This document shows, piece after piece, positions 17,250 to 23,780 of a stretch of DNA of 28,750 nucleotides (its first letter is position 1; every line of letters starts with the position of its first letter). The position numbers and the translations under genes were made by a program. The DNA comes from Armatimonadia bacterium. GTDB taxonomy: Bacteria; Armatimonadota; Zipacnadia; Zipacnadales; UBA11051. The notes beneath the pieces were generated by a model. That model was not told where the DNA came from. It did not search any database and was given only the letters and a program-made list of their open reading frames with translations. The stretch spans positions 1 to 28,750 of the forward strand of contig JBDKRC010000150.1 in NCBI GenBank assembly GCA_039683575.1, written 5' to 3'.

Positions 17250-18176
17250 ATGGGACGAATCTTCAATGACATCACCGAGACAATCGGGAACACGCCACTG
17301 GTGAGGCTGGGGAAGGTAGCCGCGGGGCTTCCTGGCGAGGTTCTGGGGAAAGCGGAGTTCTTCAACCCCTTGTCGAGTGTGAAGGACCGGATCGGACTGA
17401 GCATGATTGAGGCGGCGGAGGCTGAGGGGAAGATCGGGCCGCAAACGACGATTATCGAGCCGACAAGCGGCAATACGGGCATTGCACTGGCGTTTGTATG
17501 CGCGGCGCGAGGCTACAGGCTGATCCTGACAATGCCGGACTCCATGAGCATTGAGCGACGACAGCTCGTGGCGGCGCTGGGGGCGGAGGTGGTCCTGACG
17601 CCTGCGGCTGAGGGCATGCAGGGCTCCATAAACCGCGCGAATGAGTTGGCCGAGGAACTTGGGGATGCCTTCATACCGTTGCAGTTCAGTAACCCCGCGA
17701 ACCCCGAAGCCCACCGGAAGACTACCGCCGAGGAGATCTGGCGCGACACAGACGGCGCGGTGGATGTGATCGTGGCCGCGGTGGGCACCGGCGGGACCAT
17801 TACCGGGATAGCAGAGGTACTCAAAGAGCGCAAGCCGGGCGTCAAGGCCATTGCAGTCGAACCCAGCGCCTCGCCGATGCTCTCGGGGGGCAAGCCGGGG
17901 CCGCACAAGATCCAGGGGATCGGCGCCAATTTCATCCCCGAAATCCTGCGGCGGGACCTGCTGGATGAGGTTATCAAGGTCGAGAACAACGATGCCTTTG
18001 AGATGGCGCGGCGGCTGGCGCGCGAGGAGGGTATCCTGTGCGGCATCTCAGCGGGGGCGAACGTGTGGGCGGCAATGCAGGTGGCGGCGCGGGCGGAGAG
18101 CGAGGGGAAGGTCATTGTGACGATACTGTGTGACACCGGGGAGAGGTACCTGAGTACCGAGTTGTTCAAAGCGTAG
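17250..18176 (+). CDS. cysK: Cysteine synthase A (O-acetylserine sulfhydrylase)
   Basis: IGNTPLV, SVKDRIG (PLP Lys), [30 protein letters not shown]. Confidence 0.97.
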
Positions 18177-18263
18177 GGCGGCCAACAGCCGCCATGGAGT
18201 ACCGGCCCCTCGTGGCCGTGCGCGATAGTCTCGGATTTTGTGCCTGAAGACAGGGAGTTGCCC

Positions 18264-18977
18264 ATGTTCGGACGACTACGTGAGGATATTCAGACGGTGT
18301 TCGCCAAGGATCCTGCGGCGCGAAGTACGCTGGAGGTCTTGCTCTGCTACCCCGGCCTGCATGCGATCTGGTACCACCGGGTATCGAATTGGTTCTGGCG
18401 GCATGGCTTCAAGCTCACCGGGCGACTCATCTCCCACTGGGGCCGGGGGCGCACCGGCATTGAGATACACCCCGGCGCTACCATCGGGCGGCGGTTCTTC
18501 ATTGACCACGGCATGGGTGTCGTGATCGGCGAGACGGCGGAGATCGGTGAGGATGTCCTGATGTACCACCAGGTAACACTGGGCGGGACGTCGCTGGAGA
18601 AGAAGAAGCGTCACCCGACCATCGGCAACAACGTGGTCATCGGCGCGGGGGCGAAGCTACTGGGCGCGTTCGAGGTCGGAGAGGGCGCCAAGATCGGGGC
18701 GGGCTCGGTAGTCATCAAGGCAGTGCCGCCGGGGGCGACGGTAGTCGGCATACCAGGGCGGGTAGTCGAGGAGGCCAAGCCGCGGCCGGTAGTGGACCTG
18801 GAACATGCTGCGTTACCCGATCCGGTGGCCGAGGCGATCAGCAACGTCCTCAAGTCGCAGGAGCATCTGAACGAGTGCTTCGGGCAGTTGCAGCGTAACA
18901 TGACGAACATGGCGGAGACGGTGGCGAAGCATCATCCGGAGACCAAAGCGGAATCGGGCAACGGCGCCGTTGAGTGA
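18264..18977 (+). CDS. cysE: Serine O-acetyltransferase
   Basis: [41 protein letters not shown], hexapeptide repeats. ATG 18264 follows GGGAG. Confidence 0.96.
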
Positions 18978-19088: not shown

Positions 19089-19772
19089 CTAGAAGTCTTC
19101 TTCTAACGGGGGGTTGACGACGATGCCAGCGGGGCCGGGCTGGCCATTGCGCTGGTCAAGCAGGCGGACCTTGCGCCCCTCTACTTGCAGCCGGCCCTCG
19201 GCGAACCATTTGATCGCCTGCGGGTAGATGCGGTGCTCCTGCTCAAGGATGCGGGCTGCGAGGTCGTCACCGCTGTCGGTGTCGAGAACGGGGACGACAG
19301 CCTGGATGATGATGGGGCCCGTGTCAAACTCGGCCTCGGCGAAGTGAACGGTGGTGCCGGCGATCTTCACGCCGTAGTCAACTGCCATTTGCTGCACTCC
19401 GACGCCGGGGAAGGCCGGGAGCAGGGCCGGATGGATGTTCATGACGGCCCGGGGATACGCCTCGAGCAGCCCTGGGCCCGTGATGCGCATATAGCCGGCG
19501 AGGCAAACAAGCTGGACGTCGTATTCCCGGAGCGTTTCGACCTGCTTGCGGTCGGCTTCTTCCCAACCAGGGGTGCCAGTTTTGGCAACCGGGATGTGTA
19601 TGGCGGGAATACCATAGCGCCTGGCGCGCTCTAAGGAAAAAGCATCCGCACGGTCGCTGATTACTACTACGACGCGCGCCGGGACCTTCCCGCTTTCGCA
19701 GGCGTCGATAATGGATTGAAGATCGGTGCCGCCGCCAGAGGCGAAGACACCGACACGAAGCAAGTCCGTCAC
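19089..19772 (-). CDS. purN: Phosphoribosylglycinamide formyltransferase
   Basis: VFASGGGTDLQ, LAGYMRI, NIHPALLPAFPG, GTTVHF, DTGPIIIQ, EHRIYP. True start is GTG 19772 after GAGGGAG; the ORF-track extension is spurious. Confidence 0.95.
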   Translation of the reverse strand: MTDLLRVGVFASGGGTDLQSIIDACESGKVPARVVVVISDRADAFSLERARRYGIPAIHIPVAKTGTPGWEEADRKQVETLREYDVQLVCLAGYMRITGPGLLEAYPRAVMNIHPALLPAFPGVGVQQMAVDYGVKIAGTTVHFAEAEFDTGPIIIQAVVPVLDTDSGDDLAARILEQEHRIYPQAIKWFAEGRLQVEGRKVRLLDQRNGQPGPAGIVVNPPLEEDF

Positions 19773-19908
19773 GTGATGGTACGCTCCCTCGATGAAACTG
19801 TGAGCGGAGGTTCCACGCCAAGGGATTGAGCACCTGCAGAGGCGGGGATCGGAAATCAGGAACCTCTGGGCAGCCACTGGACTGACCAGGGGAGAAAGAA
19901 GGGACCTG

Positions 19909-20400
19909 ATGAAAGGGCAGCAGTTGGCAAACGGAATCGTACGGACCGCGCTGATGGTACTGGTTGTGGCAGCCGCACTCCCGGCTCTGGCGCAGGAACA
20001 GGGCCAGCTTGAGACGCTGATGAATGCCACCGGCTTGAAGATGGAGAAGCTCGAGGCGGACACGTGGAAAGTGCCGTTCGACGGGGACAACGGCAAGACG
20101 CTTGAGGTCTACGTCACCTATAGCAACGATAAGAAGCTATCGGCCTTGATCTTCTGCACGGTGGTGGATCGAGACGCAAACTTCCAGTTCAACCGTGAGG
20201 TACTGGCGAGAGCCATGGTGATCAGCAACGATCAACCGTTCATCAAGATCGTGCTCGACGCCGATCACGGAGATCTGGACTGCCAGACGGAAGCATACAT
20301 GCCGACCTTGACCGCCGAGGCGCTGAAGATGTACCTGGATACGGTGGCGTCCATATCGGACCAGTACGGGGCAGAGTTGAACCAGCTCGCGGGGCAGTAG
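19909..20400 (+). CDS. YbjN/T3SS-chaperone-fold protein with signal peptide (paralog 1)
   Basis: Signal peptide ...LPALA-QE. Pattern 'L...M..SN..PF.K.VLD..GDL.....Y...LT...L..YL..VASI.D' resembles YbjN. Confidence 0.7.
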   Translation: MKGQQLANGIVRTALMVLVVAAALPALAQEQGQLETLMNATGLKMEKLEADTWKVPFDGDNGKTLEVYVTYSNDKKLSALIFCTVVDRDANFQFNREVLARAMVISNDQPFIKIVLDADHGDLDCQTEAYMPTLTAEALKMYLDTVASISDQYGAELNQLAGQ

Positions 20401-20996: not shown

Positions 20997-21025
20997 AAAA
21001 GGCCTCCGCGTGGCGGAGGCCTTTT
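20997..21025. terminator. Bidirectional intrinsic terminator
   Basis: AAAA-GGCCTCCGC-gtg-GCGGAGGCC-TTTT between convergent genes. Confidence 0.9.
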
Positions 21026-21065: not shown

Positions 21066-21473
21066 TTAGAAGGTCAGTTCCATGGCCCGCGGTGGGCAGC
21101 GGGGGACGCAGAGCTCGCACGCAATGCACTTGTCGGAGTCAAAGCCGACCTTCCTGGTCTCCAGGTCAATGAACAGGGCGTTGGTCGGACAGGAGGTGAT
21201 GCAGGCGCCGCAGTCGGTGCAACGCTGTTCGTTACGGACTACGTCGCGCGCGAGAGGCTGCACGATAACTCCCCGCTTCTTCAGGTTTCTGACGGCCGTG
21301 TCGAGCTTGCGATCCTCGCCGGTGAGGCCCAGAACCATAAGGCCCTCGCGGTCCGGCGTGATGCTCGCACGCAGGATACTGAAGTCCAGATCGTACGCCT
21401 TGACCGTCTCGGAGATGATCGGTTCGTCAATTAGTGTCTGCGGAAAGCGCAGAACCAGTCGCACTGTCTTCAA
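21066..21473 (-). CDS. NIL domain + 2x[4Fe-4S] ferredoxin (MA1822-like partner of homocysteine synthase)
   Basis: N-terminal NIL-like domain (EPIIS...YDLDFSILRASI) and two CxxCxxCxxxCP motifs. TTG start directly follows the upstream TAG, with SD AAGGAGG inside the upstream gene. Confidence 0.9.
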   Translation of the reverse strand: MKTVRLVLRFPQTLIDEPIISETVKAYDLDFSILRASITPDREGLMVLGLTGEDRKLDTAVRNLKKRGVIVQPLARDVVRNEQRCTDCGACITSCPTNALFIDLETRKVGFDSDKCIACELCVPRCPPRAMELTF

Positions 21474-22694
21474 CTAACCCACCTCCTTGACAGACTTGAG
21501 CGGGCGCTCGTTGAGTAGTTTGAACTTGACGTCAGAGTCGGCGGAAGGCAACGTCTCAACGGGCTCGGTCAGCAGGAACTGGCCGGTGTCGATCTGCGAC
21601 TTGAGTTCGAGAGCGATTTCTCGCGCCCGGGGGTAGCTGGACAGCGGGTTGGTCGGGATCGTCTTGCCCTCGACTTCGATGCTGCCGCTCTTCAGCTCCG
21701 CGTAGGAGATGTGCCCCAGTGGCCCACGCTCCCCGTACGCATAGCCGCGGCTGTAGTCAACCACGGGCGCGAGGATCTCCGCGTCGGAGACCGCAGTATA
21801 GCGGGCCATGTCGGCGTCGAGGATCGGGATCGGTATGCCGATGCCAAGCGCCAGCGAAACGCCGTAACCATACATGCTCACACCGACCACGTAGCGGGGG
21901 TTCATCGCTTTGAGGTCGCCGACCGTCGCGATGGTGCCGGCGCCGCCCTTAGGCACGCCGTTTTCACTGCGCGCGCTGGCGGGATCGTGCTGGGTGCCCT
22001 GCCAGAAGATATAGCCCTGCGCACCGCCGATGAAGATGCGCGACCCGATGCCGATGGTGCGGAAATAGGGGTCATTGAGCAGCGGCGAAAGCTGGCCGGC
22101 CGAGCAGTAGCCCGCCGAGCCGAGGCTCTTCTTGAGCACGCCCATGTAGGTATACAGGTCGCGGTCCTTTGAGAGGTTCACCGCGACATTGTAGTTCTGG
22201 TAGGCGTTGCGGGGGTTGCAGATGAACGCCTGGTTGAGGTCCTTAAGGCGCAGTAGCGTCTCAAGCTCGCGGCGCGGGTAGCAGTCCGTGCCGTAGCTCT
22301 CGGCACGCAGCAGCACATCGCGGCCCGCCACCAGGTCGGCGATGACGTGCGCTCCGCCGTAGCGGAACTCGCCCGGATGATTGCGGTTCAGCGGATCGCC
22401 CTCAACGACCTCTGTGGCGCCGATGTAGCAGTCCACAGCGGCGATGCCGGCATACGCGGGGACGTCGTTGAGCCACACCTTGCTCATCCTCATCCTGGGC
22501 TTGGTGTGCCCAAAGTTGAGGAAGGCGCCGGATGAACACATCGGGCCGAAGGTGCCGGTGGTGACGACGTCAACCGTCTTCGCAGCTTTCTTCGCGCCCT
22601 GTTCGGCGACTATGCCGATCATGTCCTCGGCGGTCACGACGACCGCCTGGCCATTCTTAATCTTCTCGTTGATCTCTGCGACTGTCTTAGCCAT
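21474..22694 (-). CDS. Homocysteine biosynthesis enzyme / L-aspartate semialdehyde sulfurtransferase (COG1900/DUF39, MA1821/MJ0100-like), without CBS domains
   Basis: KTVAEINEKIK.G.AVVVTAE, VDVVTTGTFGPMCSSG, GTDCYPR, NPRNAYQNY, GQLSPLLNDP, GIGIPIPILD; 406 aa. Confidence 0.92.
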   Translation of the reverse strand: MAKTVAEINEKIKNGQAVVVTAEDMIGIVAEQGAKKAAKTVDVVTTGTFGPMCSSGAFLNFGHTKPRMRMSKVWLNDVPAYAGIAAVDCYIGATEVVEGDPLNRNHPGEFRYGGAHVIADLVAGRDVLLRAESYGTDCYPRRELETLLRLKDLNQAFICNPRNAYQNYNVAVNLSKDRDLYTYMGVLKKSLGSAGYCSAGQLSPLLNDPYFRTIGIGSRIFIGGAQGYIFWQGTQHDPASARSENGVPKGGAGTIATVGDLKAMNPRYVVGVSMYGYGVSLALGIGIPIPILDADMARYTAVSDAEILAPVVDYSRGYAYGERGPLGHISYAELKSGSIEVEGKTIPTNPLSSYPRAREIALELKSQIDTGQFLLTEPVETLPSADSDVKFKLLNERPLKSVKEVG

Positions 22695-22712
22695 TCCTGG
22701 AGTTACCTCTCG

Positions 22713-22829
22713 TTAGGATGGCCGGGCGAAGGGATGCCCGGCGTCAAGTCGGCTGGGTCGGCGTCCCGCGGGACGCTGGCGCATGCCCATGGACATCACT
22801 CCGCCAGGTGATAGGTGCTGCCATCTCAT
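22713..22829 (-). CDS. Putative Met-rich leader peptide (38 aa)
   Basis: AAGGAGG (22846-22840), ATG 22829, MRWQHLSPGGVMSMGMRQRPAGRRPSRLDAGHPFARPS, TAA 18 nt before the COG1900 ATG. An in-frame ATG also lies at 22838. Confidence 0.5.
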   Translation of the reverse strand: MRWQHLSPGGVMSMGMRQRPAGRRPSRLDAGHPFARPS

Positions 22830-22893
22830 TTGGGTCATCCCTCCTTGCCACAGAGTTGCTGCGCGACATCGCGCAGGTATACCTATGTACGGT

Positions 22894-22922
22894 AGTGTAG
22901 CACTTTCTCAGACTAATGTACA
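22894..22922 (-). promoter_or_regulatory. Promoter of the homocysteine synthesis operon
   Basis: Minus strand TGTACA-N17-TACACT with extended TG, overlapped by inverted repeat GTAGTGTA-N19-TACACTAC (22892-22926). Confidence 0.5.
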
Positions 22923-22950
22923 CTACGTCGGTAGAGAAACTTCTGACGCC

Positions 22951-23670
22951 TCACAGCGTGACTAGTTCAAATTCGCCCCAAACGCCCATCGTGCCGCCGA
23001 TTATGCCCAGAGCCTGTAGCACTCCCGGCACGGTCCGAGCCCAGTCCAGAGCCTCCTGGATCGTGGCCGGGCTCTTGATGCGGTTGGTGAAGGCAGTGGC
23101 CACCGCGTCGGCGAGAGCCGCGTCAGCGGCGATAATCAGCCCCGCATCGGCCTTGCCGAGGCTCAGCGAATGGCCAACAGTCGCGGAACTGGTGCAGATG
23201 CCCAGGCGGCTGCCAGGTGGTATCCGGAGACCGACGCGGCCGCTGAGGCTGGAACTGCCCGCATGCACCGACACGATGCGCTCGGTCTTCGTGGAAAGAA
23301 AGATGTCGCCACCATTTTCGACAATGACCTGCGCCGAGTGCTGCAGCAGGGCGTCTCCTACATATTCCGCCACAACCCCGGCCACGGCAGCCATAGGCCC
23401 CACACCCGCGGCGGCGGTAGTCTCGTACATACGCTTGACCAGCGGCGTGGCGTCAGCAGGCGCCGACAGCGGCTCCAGGCTGGTCAGGAAGGCCCTGTTG
23501 CGCACGATCTCGCCCTGCACCTCGGCGCGAGCGGCCTTGACGGCAGCGAGGGCCTCGGCCGACAGATCGCGTGCGGCCGAGATATGCAGATCCGTCTCGG
23601 CCAGGCACACTCGGAAGCAGACGAGGTCCTGATGCTGCACTGTTTCGCGGTACGTGCGTCGCTCAAACAT
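22951..23670 (-). CDS. UPF0280 / COG2122 ApbE-like protein (MA1715-like, sulfide assimilation)
   Basis: ETDLHI, FLTSLEP, GVGPMAAVAG, IVENGGDI, GICTSSATVGHSLSLGKADA, ADAVATA. Start is likely ATG 23670. Confidence 0.9.
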   Translation of the reverse strand: MFERRTYRETVQHQDLVCFRVCLAETDLHISAARDLSAEALAAVKAARAEVQGEIVRNRAFLTSLEPLSAPADATPLVKRMYETTAAAGVGPMAAVAGVVAEYVGDALLQHSAQVIVENGGDIFLSTKTERIVSVHAGSSSLSGRVGLRIPPGSRLGICTSSATVGHSLSLGKADAGLIIAADAALADAVATAFTNRIKSPATIQEALDWARTVPGVLQALGIIGGTMGVWGEFELVTL

Positions 23671-23726
23671 GGCTTTCACATGTGACAAAACGCCCGGCGT
23701 GCGCCGGACGCATGGATACGGGAGGG

Positions 23727-23780
23727 ATAATAGCATTTGTAAGGGGTTGGGACAAGGGGGACAGGGATTTGTGCTATAAT
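23727..23780. promoter_or_regulatory. Divergent extended -10 promoters
   Basis: Minus: TGcTATTAT (23735-23727). Plus: TGcTATAAT (23772-23780), 7 nt before ATG 23788. Confidence 0.6.

Follow-up and report, generated by a model that had tools for sequence, protein, structure and literature searches.

A conserved methionine-codon leader precedes the homocysteine biosynthesis operon in Armatimonadota and WS1 bacteria and is a candidate variant of the ribosome-mediated attenuators

In the classical attenuators trpL, hisL, leuL, thrL, pheL and ilvL, a short open reading frame (ORF) led by a Shine-Dalgarno (SD) sequence precedes a biosynthetic operon, carries clustered codons for the operon's own amino acid and is directly followed by a hairpin. 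In the textbook view, leader peptides have no part in the control of methionine genes, which falls to S-adenosylmethionine (SAM) riboswitches, T-boxes or repressors. Here we describe a leader ORF with clustered methionine codons in front of hcyBio, the gene for the homocysteine biosynthesis enzyme HcyBio (DUF39/COG1900), on contig JBDKRC010000150.1 of an Armatimonadia bacterium (assembly GCA_039683575.1). The window is the whole stretch of DNA analysed, positions 1 to 28,750 of that contig. The leader resembles the classical systems in its SD-led short ORF before a biosynthetic operon, its clustered codons for the operon's own amino acid and the hairpin directly behind them, and in one relative (L001) the stop codon abuts the hairpin as it does in trpL. 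It differs from them in the amino acid, methionine, and in the M-x-M-x-M spacing of codons that are in tandem there. It also has no U-tract terminator and no conserved antiterminator/terminator pair, in four of five leaders the ORF continues for another 19-51 codons as far as the hcyBio start, and its hosts are Armatimonadota and candidate division WS1.

Leader-peptide attenuators in general are described in PMC8079986 and PMC2965389. The only precedent of methionine type that we found is 'metL' (MSTTSDRTPATEATTTPGARCMCRRMCAF), proposed before metNIQ in Streptomyces lividans TK24 from RNA-seq annotation of one genome (PMC8079986), and the contrast that a preliminary description of the window drew between methionine and the amino acids with leader-peptide attenuation has to be softened to that extent. 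Like the leader described here, metL is a proposed methionine-dependent leader peptide with hairpins and no typical Rho-independent terminator downstream. It differs in being leaderless, in standing before a transporter operon and in its pattern, CMCRRMC, and there is no sequence similarity between the two; the passages on metL give neither comparative nor functional tests (PMC8079986). The leaderless polycysteine small ORFs (sORFs) of mycobacteria are also similar in that they are unannotated, belong to a sulfur-amino-acid pathway and involve ribosome pausing on a run of cognate codons, with no terminator. There the ribosome, once stalled, prevents a duplex that would sequester the ribosome-binding site (RBS) of the following gene (bioRxiv 10.1101/834739). 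Such a duplex was looked for and not found in our five leaders, which moreover have a 5' untranslated region and an SD. SAM-I riboswitches (RF00162) and methionine T-boxes (RF00230) occupy the same position before the same operon, and the T-box senses the same tRNA-Met charging; both are RNA-only sensors with canonical terminators and have no homology to the leader. In the open-access PMC and bioRxiv literature we found no methionine leader described before HcyBio/COG1900 or in Armatimonadota. The leader is probably a methionine-sensing control element of a kind hardly documented for this amino acid so far.

The leader lies in the 256-nucleotide (nt) gap between hcyBio and a 261-amino-acid (aa) ORF upstream of it (Table 1). 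The SD, ATG, methionine cluster, two hairpins and stop codon named in the preliminary description were all located on the minus strand, base-exact. Internal methionines of the peptide are limited to codons 12, 14 and 16, which form the cluster ATG-TCC-ATG-GGC-ATG (M-S-M-G-M) at 22796-22782, and the stop codon TAA (22715-22713) lies 18 nt ahead of the HcyBio ATG at 22694. There are two candidate starts. The ATG at 22829 gives 38 codons and is placed 10 nt past GGAGG; the ATG at 22838 would add MTQ in frame (41 codons) and is a poor start, only 1 nt past the SD. The strings from which competing pairings had been proposed are also present, namely GATGTCC (22797-22791) with GGGCATC (22739-22733), GCGTC (22776-22772) with GACGC at 22765-22761 or 22745-22741, and GGAGGGATG with CATCCCTTC. 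The last of these strings (22736-22728) is contained in the loop and 5' arm of the distal hairpin, P2, and is able to pair with the leader SD/start strand at 22844-22836.

Rfam covariance models gave no match in the whole window at the gathering score, and at E up to 10 the region 22600-23050 returned only a 12-bit chance match to a snoRNA, so that neither a riboswitch nor a T-box was found in the leader. A terminator scan of 22400-23200 called no terminator-like site, in agreement with the reported lack of a U-tract, and a scan of the same interval for sigma-70-like promoters called none. Plus-strand and alternative minus-strand ORFs across the leader had no family match. Taken by itself, the window offers nothing remarkable in its frame, hairpins or fold energy: a frame of 38-41 codons is ordinary at 62% G+C, and the fold of the 221-nt leader barely beats shuffles (z = -1.6; 12 of 200 shuffles fold equally well). 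That the module goes beyond chance is shown only together with its relatives.

Table 1. Features of the leader and operon in the window, and leader peptides of the window and its relatives (distances in nt are from the SD to the start codon; ORF ends are given in nt relative to the hcyBio start)
Feature	Position	Strand	Remarks
Perfect 8-nt inverted repeat CTGCGCGA-TG-TCGCGCAG	22859..22876	-	directly 5' of leader SD
SD AAGGAGG of leader ORF	22840..22846	-	
Leader ORF, MRWQHLSPGGVMSMGMRQRPAGRRPSRLDAGHPFARPS*	22713..22829	-	38 codons + stop
Conserved core GTG ATG nnn ATG Gnn ATG (V-M-x-M-x-M)	22782..22799	-	putative Met-tRNA sensor
Spacer CGCCA	22777..22781	-	5 nt, last Met codon to P1
Hairpin P1, GCGUCC-cgcg-GGACGC	22761..22776	-	-10.1 kcal/mol; position kept in relatives
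Hairpin P2, GCCGGGC-N8-GCCCGGC	22721..22742	-	window-specific
HcyBio/DUF39/COG1900 homocysteine biosynthesis enzyme	21474..22694	-	controlled gene; 406 aa; Pfam PF01837, E 3.4e-150
NIL + 2x[4Fe-4S] ferredoxin partner	21066..21473	-	135 aa; start abuts HcyBio stop
Canonical intrinsic terminator closing the operon	20997..21025	- (bidirectional)	13-bp stem + T-run
261-aa ORF upstream of leader	22951..23736	-	same strand as leader
Leader peptide, window, MRWQHLSPGGVMSMGMRQRP...			38 aa; AAGGAGG, 10 nt after GGAGG; ORF end -18
Leader peptide, L004, MFGHFRPSTRVMMRMAMRQRL...			61 aa; AAAGGAGG, 7 nt; ORF end +8
Leader peptide, L002, MADASISLAVQVMPMAMPQRR...			68 aa; AAAGGAGG, 9 nt; ORF end +38
Leader peptide, L005, MSGCPGIRGVFSMFMRPRR...			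34 aa; ATG overlaps stop of upstream MBL-fold ORF (ATGA); ORF end -26
Leader peptide, L001, ...RPQPAVMAMAMR*			32 aa; AGGAG, 6 nt; ORF end -105, one codon past cluster

Relatives were obtained by a profile scan of genome contigs with an alignment of 20 HcyBio proteins, and the best 80 loci among the matches listed were analysed. The best locus listed has a 72% identical HcyBio, and 28 clusters at 75-99% identity were compared as proteins only. Five loci have an HcyBio of at least 68% identity (68-72%), one of which (L003) ends without upstream DNA. The methionine-codon module, consisting of a ribosome-binding site, a start codon, V-M-x-M-x-M, a 5-nt spacer and a GC hairpin, was found in all four of the others: L001 from Armatimonadota, L002 and L005 from candidate division WS1, and L004 from Candidatus Zipacnadia, a class of Armatimonadota. 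Conservation of the short ORF and methionine cluster in orthologous leaders was the check on which the preliminary description had staked its interpretation, and it came out positive in 4/4 leaders, three with at least three methionine codons and one with two. The in-frame ATG cluster is placed 87-145 nt ahead of hcyBio in these loci. The core string is GTG ATG nnn ATG Gnn ATG C, with the two-methionine form GTG TTC AGT ATG TTC ATG C in L005; counting the window, three or four methionine codons fall within 5-6 codons in four of the five leaders, and two within three codons in L005.

The module was absent from all 75 remaining loci (HcyBio of at most 65% identity), among which L024 alone has three in-frame ATGs within 500 nt, at -487 and with no hairpin. 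A relaxed search for at least two ATGs one codon apart with a hairpin 4-6 nt later returned only L001, L002, L004 and L005. A 51-nt covariance model of the core, built from the five leaders, scored these at 45-56 bits; the next match, at 18 bits, was the antisense of the L002 hairpin, and everything in the rest of the 533 kb scored at most 13.4 bits. The pattern ATGnnnATGnnnATG occurs 17 times in the 1,066,184 strand-bases of the window and the 80 loci: four times in these leaders, nine times as the antisense of a conserved HcyBio peptide motif and four times elsewhere, which gives a background outside the leaders of about 1.2e-5 per strand-base (13 per 1.07 Mb). In an alignment of the five leaders the methionine core is the most conserved block, the mean column identity of the leader being 51%, and the leaders of L001, L002, L004 and L005 had no match in Rfam. 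The genes upstream vary among the loci (lyxose isomerase, CysK-like, MBL-fold, unknown) and the hcyBio-NIL/Fer4 pair is constant downstream, with the same pair in L001, L004 and L005; the module therefore belongs to the operon. Together, these results show that lineages of Armatimonadota and WS1 have conserved the ORF, SD, methionine cluster, spacer and hairpin, and that these are specific to this operon.

The leader ORFs carry translation signals. GGAGG or AGGAG is found 6-10 nt ahead of the start in four of the five, and in the fifth, L005, the start of the leader and the TGA stop of the MBL-fold ORF share the sequence ATGA (L005:2870-2873); in this lineage the leader lies inside an operon and is probably translationally coupled. 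A 12-nt string around the leader SD of the window, AAGGAGGGATGA, is identical in L002. Four of the five leaders have their last methionine at codon 15-17, and the peptides of 32-68 aa have no methionine outside the initiator and the cluster. While the ATG triplets are fixed, the intervening codons change at all three positions (TCC/GCT/CCT/CGC in one place and GGC/GCC/GCG/GCT in the other), and the conservation of the methionine core is thus of coding type. The residues behind the cluster are alike (RQR, RQR, PQRR, RPRR), giving a shared V-M-x-M-x-M-(R/P)-x-R. Pfam has no family for the leader peptides at E up to 1. Two relatives were found in protein sets. P0124 is 68% identical to the L002 peptide and retains MADASxSLxVQVMPMAMPQRR; the first 21 residues and both RR pairs that encode the hairpin arms are retained, and the loop-encoding residues and the middle of the peptide are altered. 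The second, P0125, with 97% identity to the L004 peptide, has an intact cluster and the change L21P at the codon with a G-U pair, which would make a C-G pair in the hairpin. Three further protein matches (332-3890 aa) were dropped as low-complexity.

The first hairpin, P1, begins 5 nt past the last ATG in all five leaders, with energies of -9.2 to -15.0 kcal/mol in per-sequence folds; the 5-nt spacer counts P1 as a G-C/G-U stem, and an extra A-U pair in L002 and L004 would give 4. Its stems are GCGUCC/GGACGC, GCGUCUC/GGGACGC, GCGCCGG/CCGGCGC (twice) and GGGCC/GGCCC. Because there are three different stem sequences (GCGUCC, GCGCCGG, GGGCC) with both sides changed, the pairing has been kept while the sequence has not. 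A perfect stem of at least 5 bp at a given position has a background of 0.77% (757/98,344), and four of the five leaders have one at offset +5; the stem of L004 has one G-U pair. In a pair count from a MAFFT alignment, three of seven pairs were doubly changed and several appeared 'broken', but gaps were set at the ends and not in the loop, the window and L001 are thereby misaligned by loop length and the table is unreliable, so that the conservation of P1 rests on the per-sequence folds. P2, in contrast, was found in the window only. When a ribosome was simulated with its A site on the methionine codons, P1 was folded while the ribosome waited and melted after it had moved on. With the last AUG in the A site, the first pair of P1 lies at about +12 from the P site, the spacing at which frameshift-stimulating structures are placed; that P1 then stands at the ribosome entrance follows from where we take the ribosomal helicase to be.

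Other loci have other sensors in the same slot. Of the 80 loci, 13 have SAM-I (RF00162) on the hcyBio strand and ahead of the gene, directly upstream in seven (L010, L036, L060, L061, L072, L075 and L078) and about 2.6 kb upstream in six (L011, L021, L027, L028, L063 and L076). L078 is an Armatimonadota metagenome-assembled genome (MAG), in which the SAM-I aptamer is followed by a stem and a T-run at 2919-2947. A T-box (RF00230) lies directly before hcyBio at L025:153-383 (134 bits, specifier loop GAA-AUG-G). In L014, an Armatimonadia MAG with a 62% identical HcyBio, a T-box-like leader at 2550-2846 scores 82.4 bits against a gathering threshold of 93 (E 1.8e-18) and has the specifier loop GAAC-AUG-G and a 10-bp hairpin with T6 at 2811-2842; it is probably a methionine T-box overlooked at the gathering threshold. 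We take AUG to be the methionine specifier in the L014 and L025 loops from the general anatomy of T-boxes. T-boxes with this specifier at hcyBio imply that tRNA-Met charging is already a signal for the operon. A single phylum thus places sensors of three kinds before one operon, and two of the three report methionine or SAM status. That T-boxes and leader peptides can take each other's place has been documented (PMC2965389).

We propose, with a probability of roughly 0.6, that the methionine-codon leader ORF regulates the operon through ribosome position, as a ribosome-mediated attenuator does. Ribosomes would start at the SD-led ATG and reach three alternating methionine codons 11-12 codons on, and the rate at which these are cleared would be set by the charged elongator tRNA-Met. 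P1, exactly 5 nt past the last methionine codon, would convert ribosome position into an RNA state, being folded under a waiting ribosome and melted after the ribosome advances. We infer from the sequences that the leader is translated, that stalling is the signal and in which direction the response goes: the element would most likely raise operon expression at methionine shortage, because it sits where related operons have SAM-I riboswitches or methionine T-boxes. Of the three features that define leader-peptide attenuators, two are present, namely a short ORF with translation signals (32-68 codons) directly before hcyBio and conserved, clustered methionine codons. The third, a terminator or sequestering switch selected by the ribosome, was not seen in the five sequences, and we therefore class the leader as a variant and not a plain member of the family. 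Of the earlier attenuator interpretation, the conserved methionine-codon leader is supported, whereas the distal hairpin, most of the pairings and the translational output are not.

Several results weigh against this reading. The evidence is small, comprising five DNA examples and two peptide-only relatives that are partly related by descent, with counts that are not independent. L005 has two methionine codons only, and the cluster of L001 is preceded by 26 codons as compared to 11-12 elsewhere. Some constancy is at the nucleotide level, with GUG for the valine in five of five leaders, G after the second AUG in four and C after the last AUG in five, and the GUG and the final C make a reading at the RNA level possible. 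The 5-nt spacer means that stalling would preserve P1, which is at odds with the mechanism in its simplest form, and if P1 were a pause or termination element, starvation would turn the operon off. The 41-aa window peptide had no candidate sharing three 5-residue words in a set of 5.8 billion protein clusters, the peptide itself included; its absence from the gene calls is neutral for either side. No terminator was called by the scan in any of the five leaders; canonical terminators are in use in the window genome and in relatives such as L014. The remaining tests of output used equilibrium thermodynamic folding and do not reach a kinetic or Rho-dependent switch. The unpaired probability of the hcyBio SD and start was computed with and without a ribosome on each methionine codon, or two or four codons beyond. 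It was unchanged on simulated stalling in the window, L002 and L004, which does not bear out the translational output suggested earlier, and it shifted slightly and inconsistently in L005 and L001. Duplexes between the ribosome-masked segment and the RBS were no better than those of shuffles in all five leaders (fraction at or below the observed energy 0.07-0.94), and the arms of P1 had no recurrent downstream partner in the five. A 'region 4' partner for the 3' arm of P1 was tried and rejected, as its best duplexes (-7.8 to -14.5 kcal/mol) fall at unrelated places, with no U-run and with the SD uncovered. If P1 is modelled as the 'ON' structure, the matching 'OFF' alternative is invisible in five sequences.

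A helix of the segment upstream of the cluster with the spacer and the P1 5' arm can form in all five leaders, at -11.4 to -16.3 kcal/mol without shuffle comparison; in the window this helix is compatible with P1, and nothing is concluded from it. Other features may bear on the output step. By eye, P1 of L002 (seven G-C pairs) is followed by TTTTT; the scan did not list it, probably because it adds an A-T pair to the stem, which leaves four T to be counted. The C/G ratio after P1 is 1.53 in the window and 1.36 in L001, compared to 0.81-0.94 in the other three, and this C-rich, G-poor stretch may be a candidate Rho site in two of five leaders. Compared with shuffles, pairing of the leader SD/start with a stretch of pyrimidines 45-60 nt ahead of hcyBio is stronger in the window (fraction 0.003) and in L002 (0.007) and marginally so in L004 (0.074); in L001 and L005 it is no stronger. 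The window and L002 have the same SD strand, and their partner strands differ only where C or U stands opposite G. Among the competing pairings of the preliminary description, this one with CATCCCTTC is the one that recurs; the others were found in the window only. Such long-range pairing may limit leader translation to early, co-transcriptional rounds. The leader ORF ends between -26 and +38 around the hcyBio start in four of the five leaders. Among the options for the output, we rank non-canonical termination or pausing, or Rho, acting via P1, highest, followed by leader ribosomes that interfere with, or couple to, initiation at the hcyBio start, with RBS sequestration least supported.

The logic could be inverted, with P1 as the OFF element, a hairpin for pausing or termination, that a ribosome moving in step with RNA polymerase melts (ON) and a held ribosome allows to fold (OFF). 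This would need a hold induced by plentiful methionine or SAM together with the nascent V-M-x-M-x-M-R-x-R. The spacer favours it, since in all five leaders P1 is intact under a stalled ribosome and melted later, and so does the run of T behind P1 in L002, where P0124 keeps the arm-encoding residues and the F-S behind them. The leader ORF also passes through P1 in four of five, ending at -18, -26, +8 and +38, which suits translation through the leader as the ON path. In pyrBI, the leader ORF contains a terminator that is suppressed when a ribosome follows the polymerase closely, and the signal is polymerase pausing at low UTP. The present ORF likewise reads through its hairpin, and a pacing ribosome would prevent folding; the signal here would however be ribosome stalling, and only with a ligand-induced stall would the pyrBI model yield the right sign. 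Against the inverted logic stand the missing entry for the L002 hairpin in the terminator scan, the lack of a U-run after P1 in the other four leaders, and the L001 peptide, which stops one codon past the cluster. The similar residues after the cluster would speak for a sensing peptide, but this likeness in R/Q/R is accounted for by the hairpin's own nucleotides, and the residues between and before the methionine codons vary freely, as they do not in known arrest peptides. In arrest peptides of the TnaC/SpeFL type, a conserved nascent sequence halts the ribosome together with a small molecule and blocks or permits Rho; among the present leaders the peptide sequence in common is limited to V-M-x-M-x-M-(R/P)-x-R, and two of five have a C-rich segment after P1. 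We know of no bacterial arrest peptide that depends on methionine or SAM, and a search of the open-access literature found none; in plants, CGS1 reportedly undergoes SAM-induced arrest and would be the counterpart. We regard the inverted logic as quite unlikely. The specific proposal that the M-x-M-x-M nascent peptide arrests the ribosome on free methionine or SAM, and that the waiting ribosome lets the hairpin fold and abort expression, we find more doubtful still; if true, it would be the first methionine- or SAM-sensing arrest peptide in bacteria.

Another explanation, which we consider unlikely, is that GGUGAUGnnnAUGGnnAUGC and P1 are read as RNA, by a new riboswitch or as a binding site for a protein or small RNA, with the frame incidental. 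The constancy of the GUG and of the bases behind the second and last AUG goes past coding need, core and hairpin work as a compact 51-nt covariance model, and GGUGAU resembles what we take to be the 3' part of an extended SD. However, the conservation has a three-base period with free intervening triplets, and in four of five leaders the cluster is preceded, at a distance of 11-12 codons, by an in-frame, SD-led start, with the ATGA overlap in L005. Furthermore, a single hairpin of 5-7 bp is too small for a metabolite aptamer, the fold is unexceptional (z = -1.6) and Rfam had no match. The conserved frame, its good translation signals and the two relatives predicted as proteins in public gene calls would also suit a small methionine-containing protein with a function of its own, for example a co-transcribed, non-regulatory HcyBio accessory. 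This we hold to be highly improbable, as the lengths differ (32, 34, 38, 61 and 68 aa), the C-termini are unconserved, the tail overlaps hcyBio out of frame in two leaders, P0123 and P0124 share only the first 21 residues and the part that overlaps hcyBio, and Pfam offers no family at the cut-off used above. A functionless chance frame in G+C-rich intergenic DNA would fit the unremarkable frame, hairpins and fold energy of the window taken alone. It deserves almost no credence, because the module recurs at the same spot in the four nearest loci with upstream DNA, from different classes or phyla, in leaders whose remainder has diverged (51%), and because the background of the ATG pattern is so low.

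HcyBio homologues are named 'homocysteine biosynthesis protein' or 'L-aspartate semialdehyde sulfurtransferase' in their sources, and the closest, 99% identical, are labelled as coming from Armatimonadia MAGs. HcyBio and the NIL/ferredoxin protein make up a pathway to homocysteine from aspartate semialdehyde in methanogens and Desulfovibrio, and its product homocysteine leads to methionine (PMC5764234). The stem of the terminator at 20997-21025 is symmetric, with A-runs and T-runs at its flanks, and was therefore called on both strands. The NIL-ferredoxin gene lies on one side of it and the following minus-strand ORFs on the other. Upstream of the leader, the inverted repeat at 22859-22876 is absent from the four related leaders in the alignment and may be either a protein site or a 5' hairpin that stabilises the leader transcript. 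Upstream of it (22880-22950, minus strand) the sequence is A+T-richer, contains the palindromes TGTACA and GTATAC and is likewise not conserved in the four related leaders; together the two may represent a promoter/operator or a 5' stabilising hairpin. The 261-aa ORF has no Pfam match, and the NCBIfam model PRK04334.1-3, 'hypothetical protein', gave 266.3 bits against a cut-off of 271. This ORF may presumably be equated with COG2122/UPF0280. COG2122/UPF0280 is named as a partner of the DUF39 pathway in PMC5764234. CysK-like PALP enzymes are encoded near or next to the hcyBio operon in three of five loci (window 17250-18977, plus strand; L004:1853-2776; L005:4706-5635), and the window additionally has a serine-acetyltransferase-like gene, forming a small sulfur-assimilation neighbourhood. 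At 19089-20096 on the minus strand, a PurN-type formyltransferase (TIGR00639, 213 bits) has an unexplained N-terminal extension of about 110 aa, which holds only if the TTG start given by the ORF finder is real.

With the methionine-codon leader, SAM-I and the methionine T-box, one operon would offer a clear-cut example of three sensors that replace one another, and leader-peptide control would be extended to little-studied phyla. The standard four-segment model does not accommodate the fixed 5-nt spacer and a single hairpin without a terminator, and the output mechanism could reveal a different coupling of ribosome position to expression. The short ORF is unannotated and mostly missed by gene callers, and its pattern can be used in searches for a possible methionine 'ribulon'.

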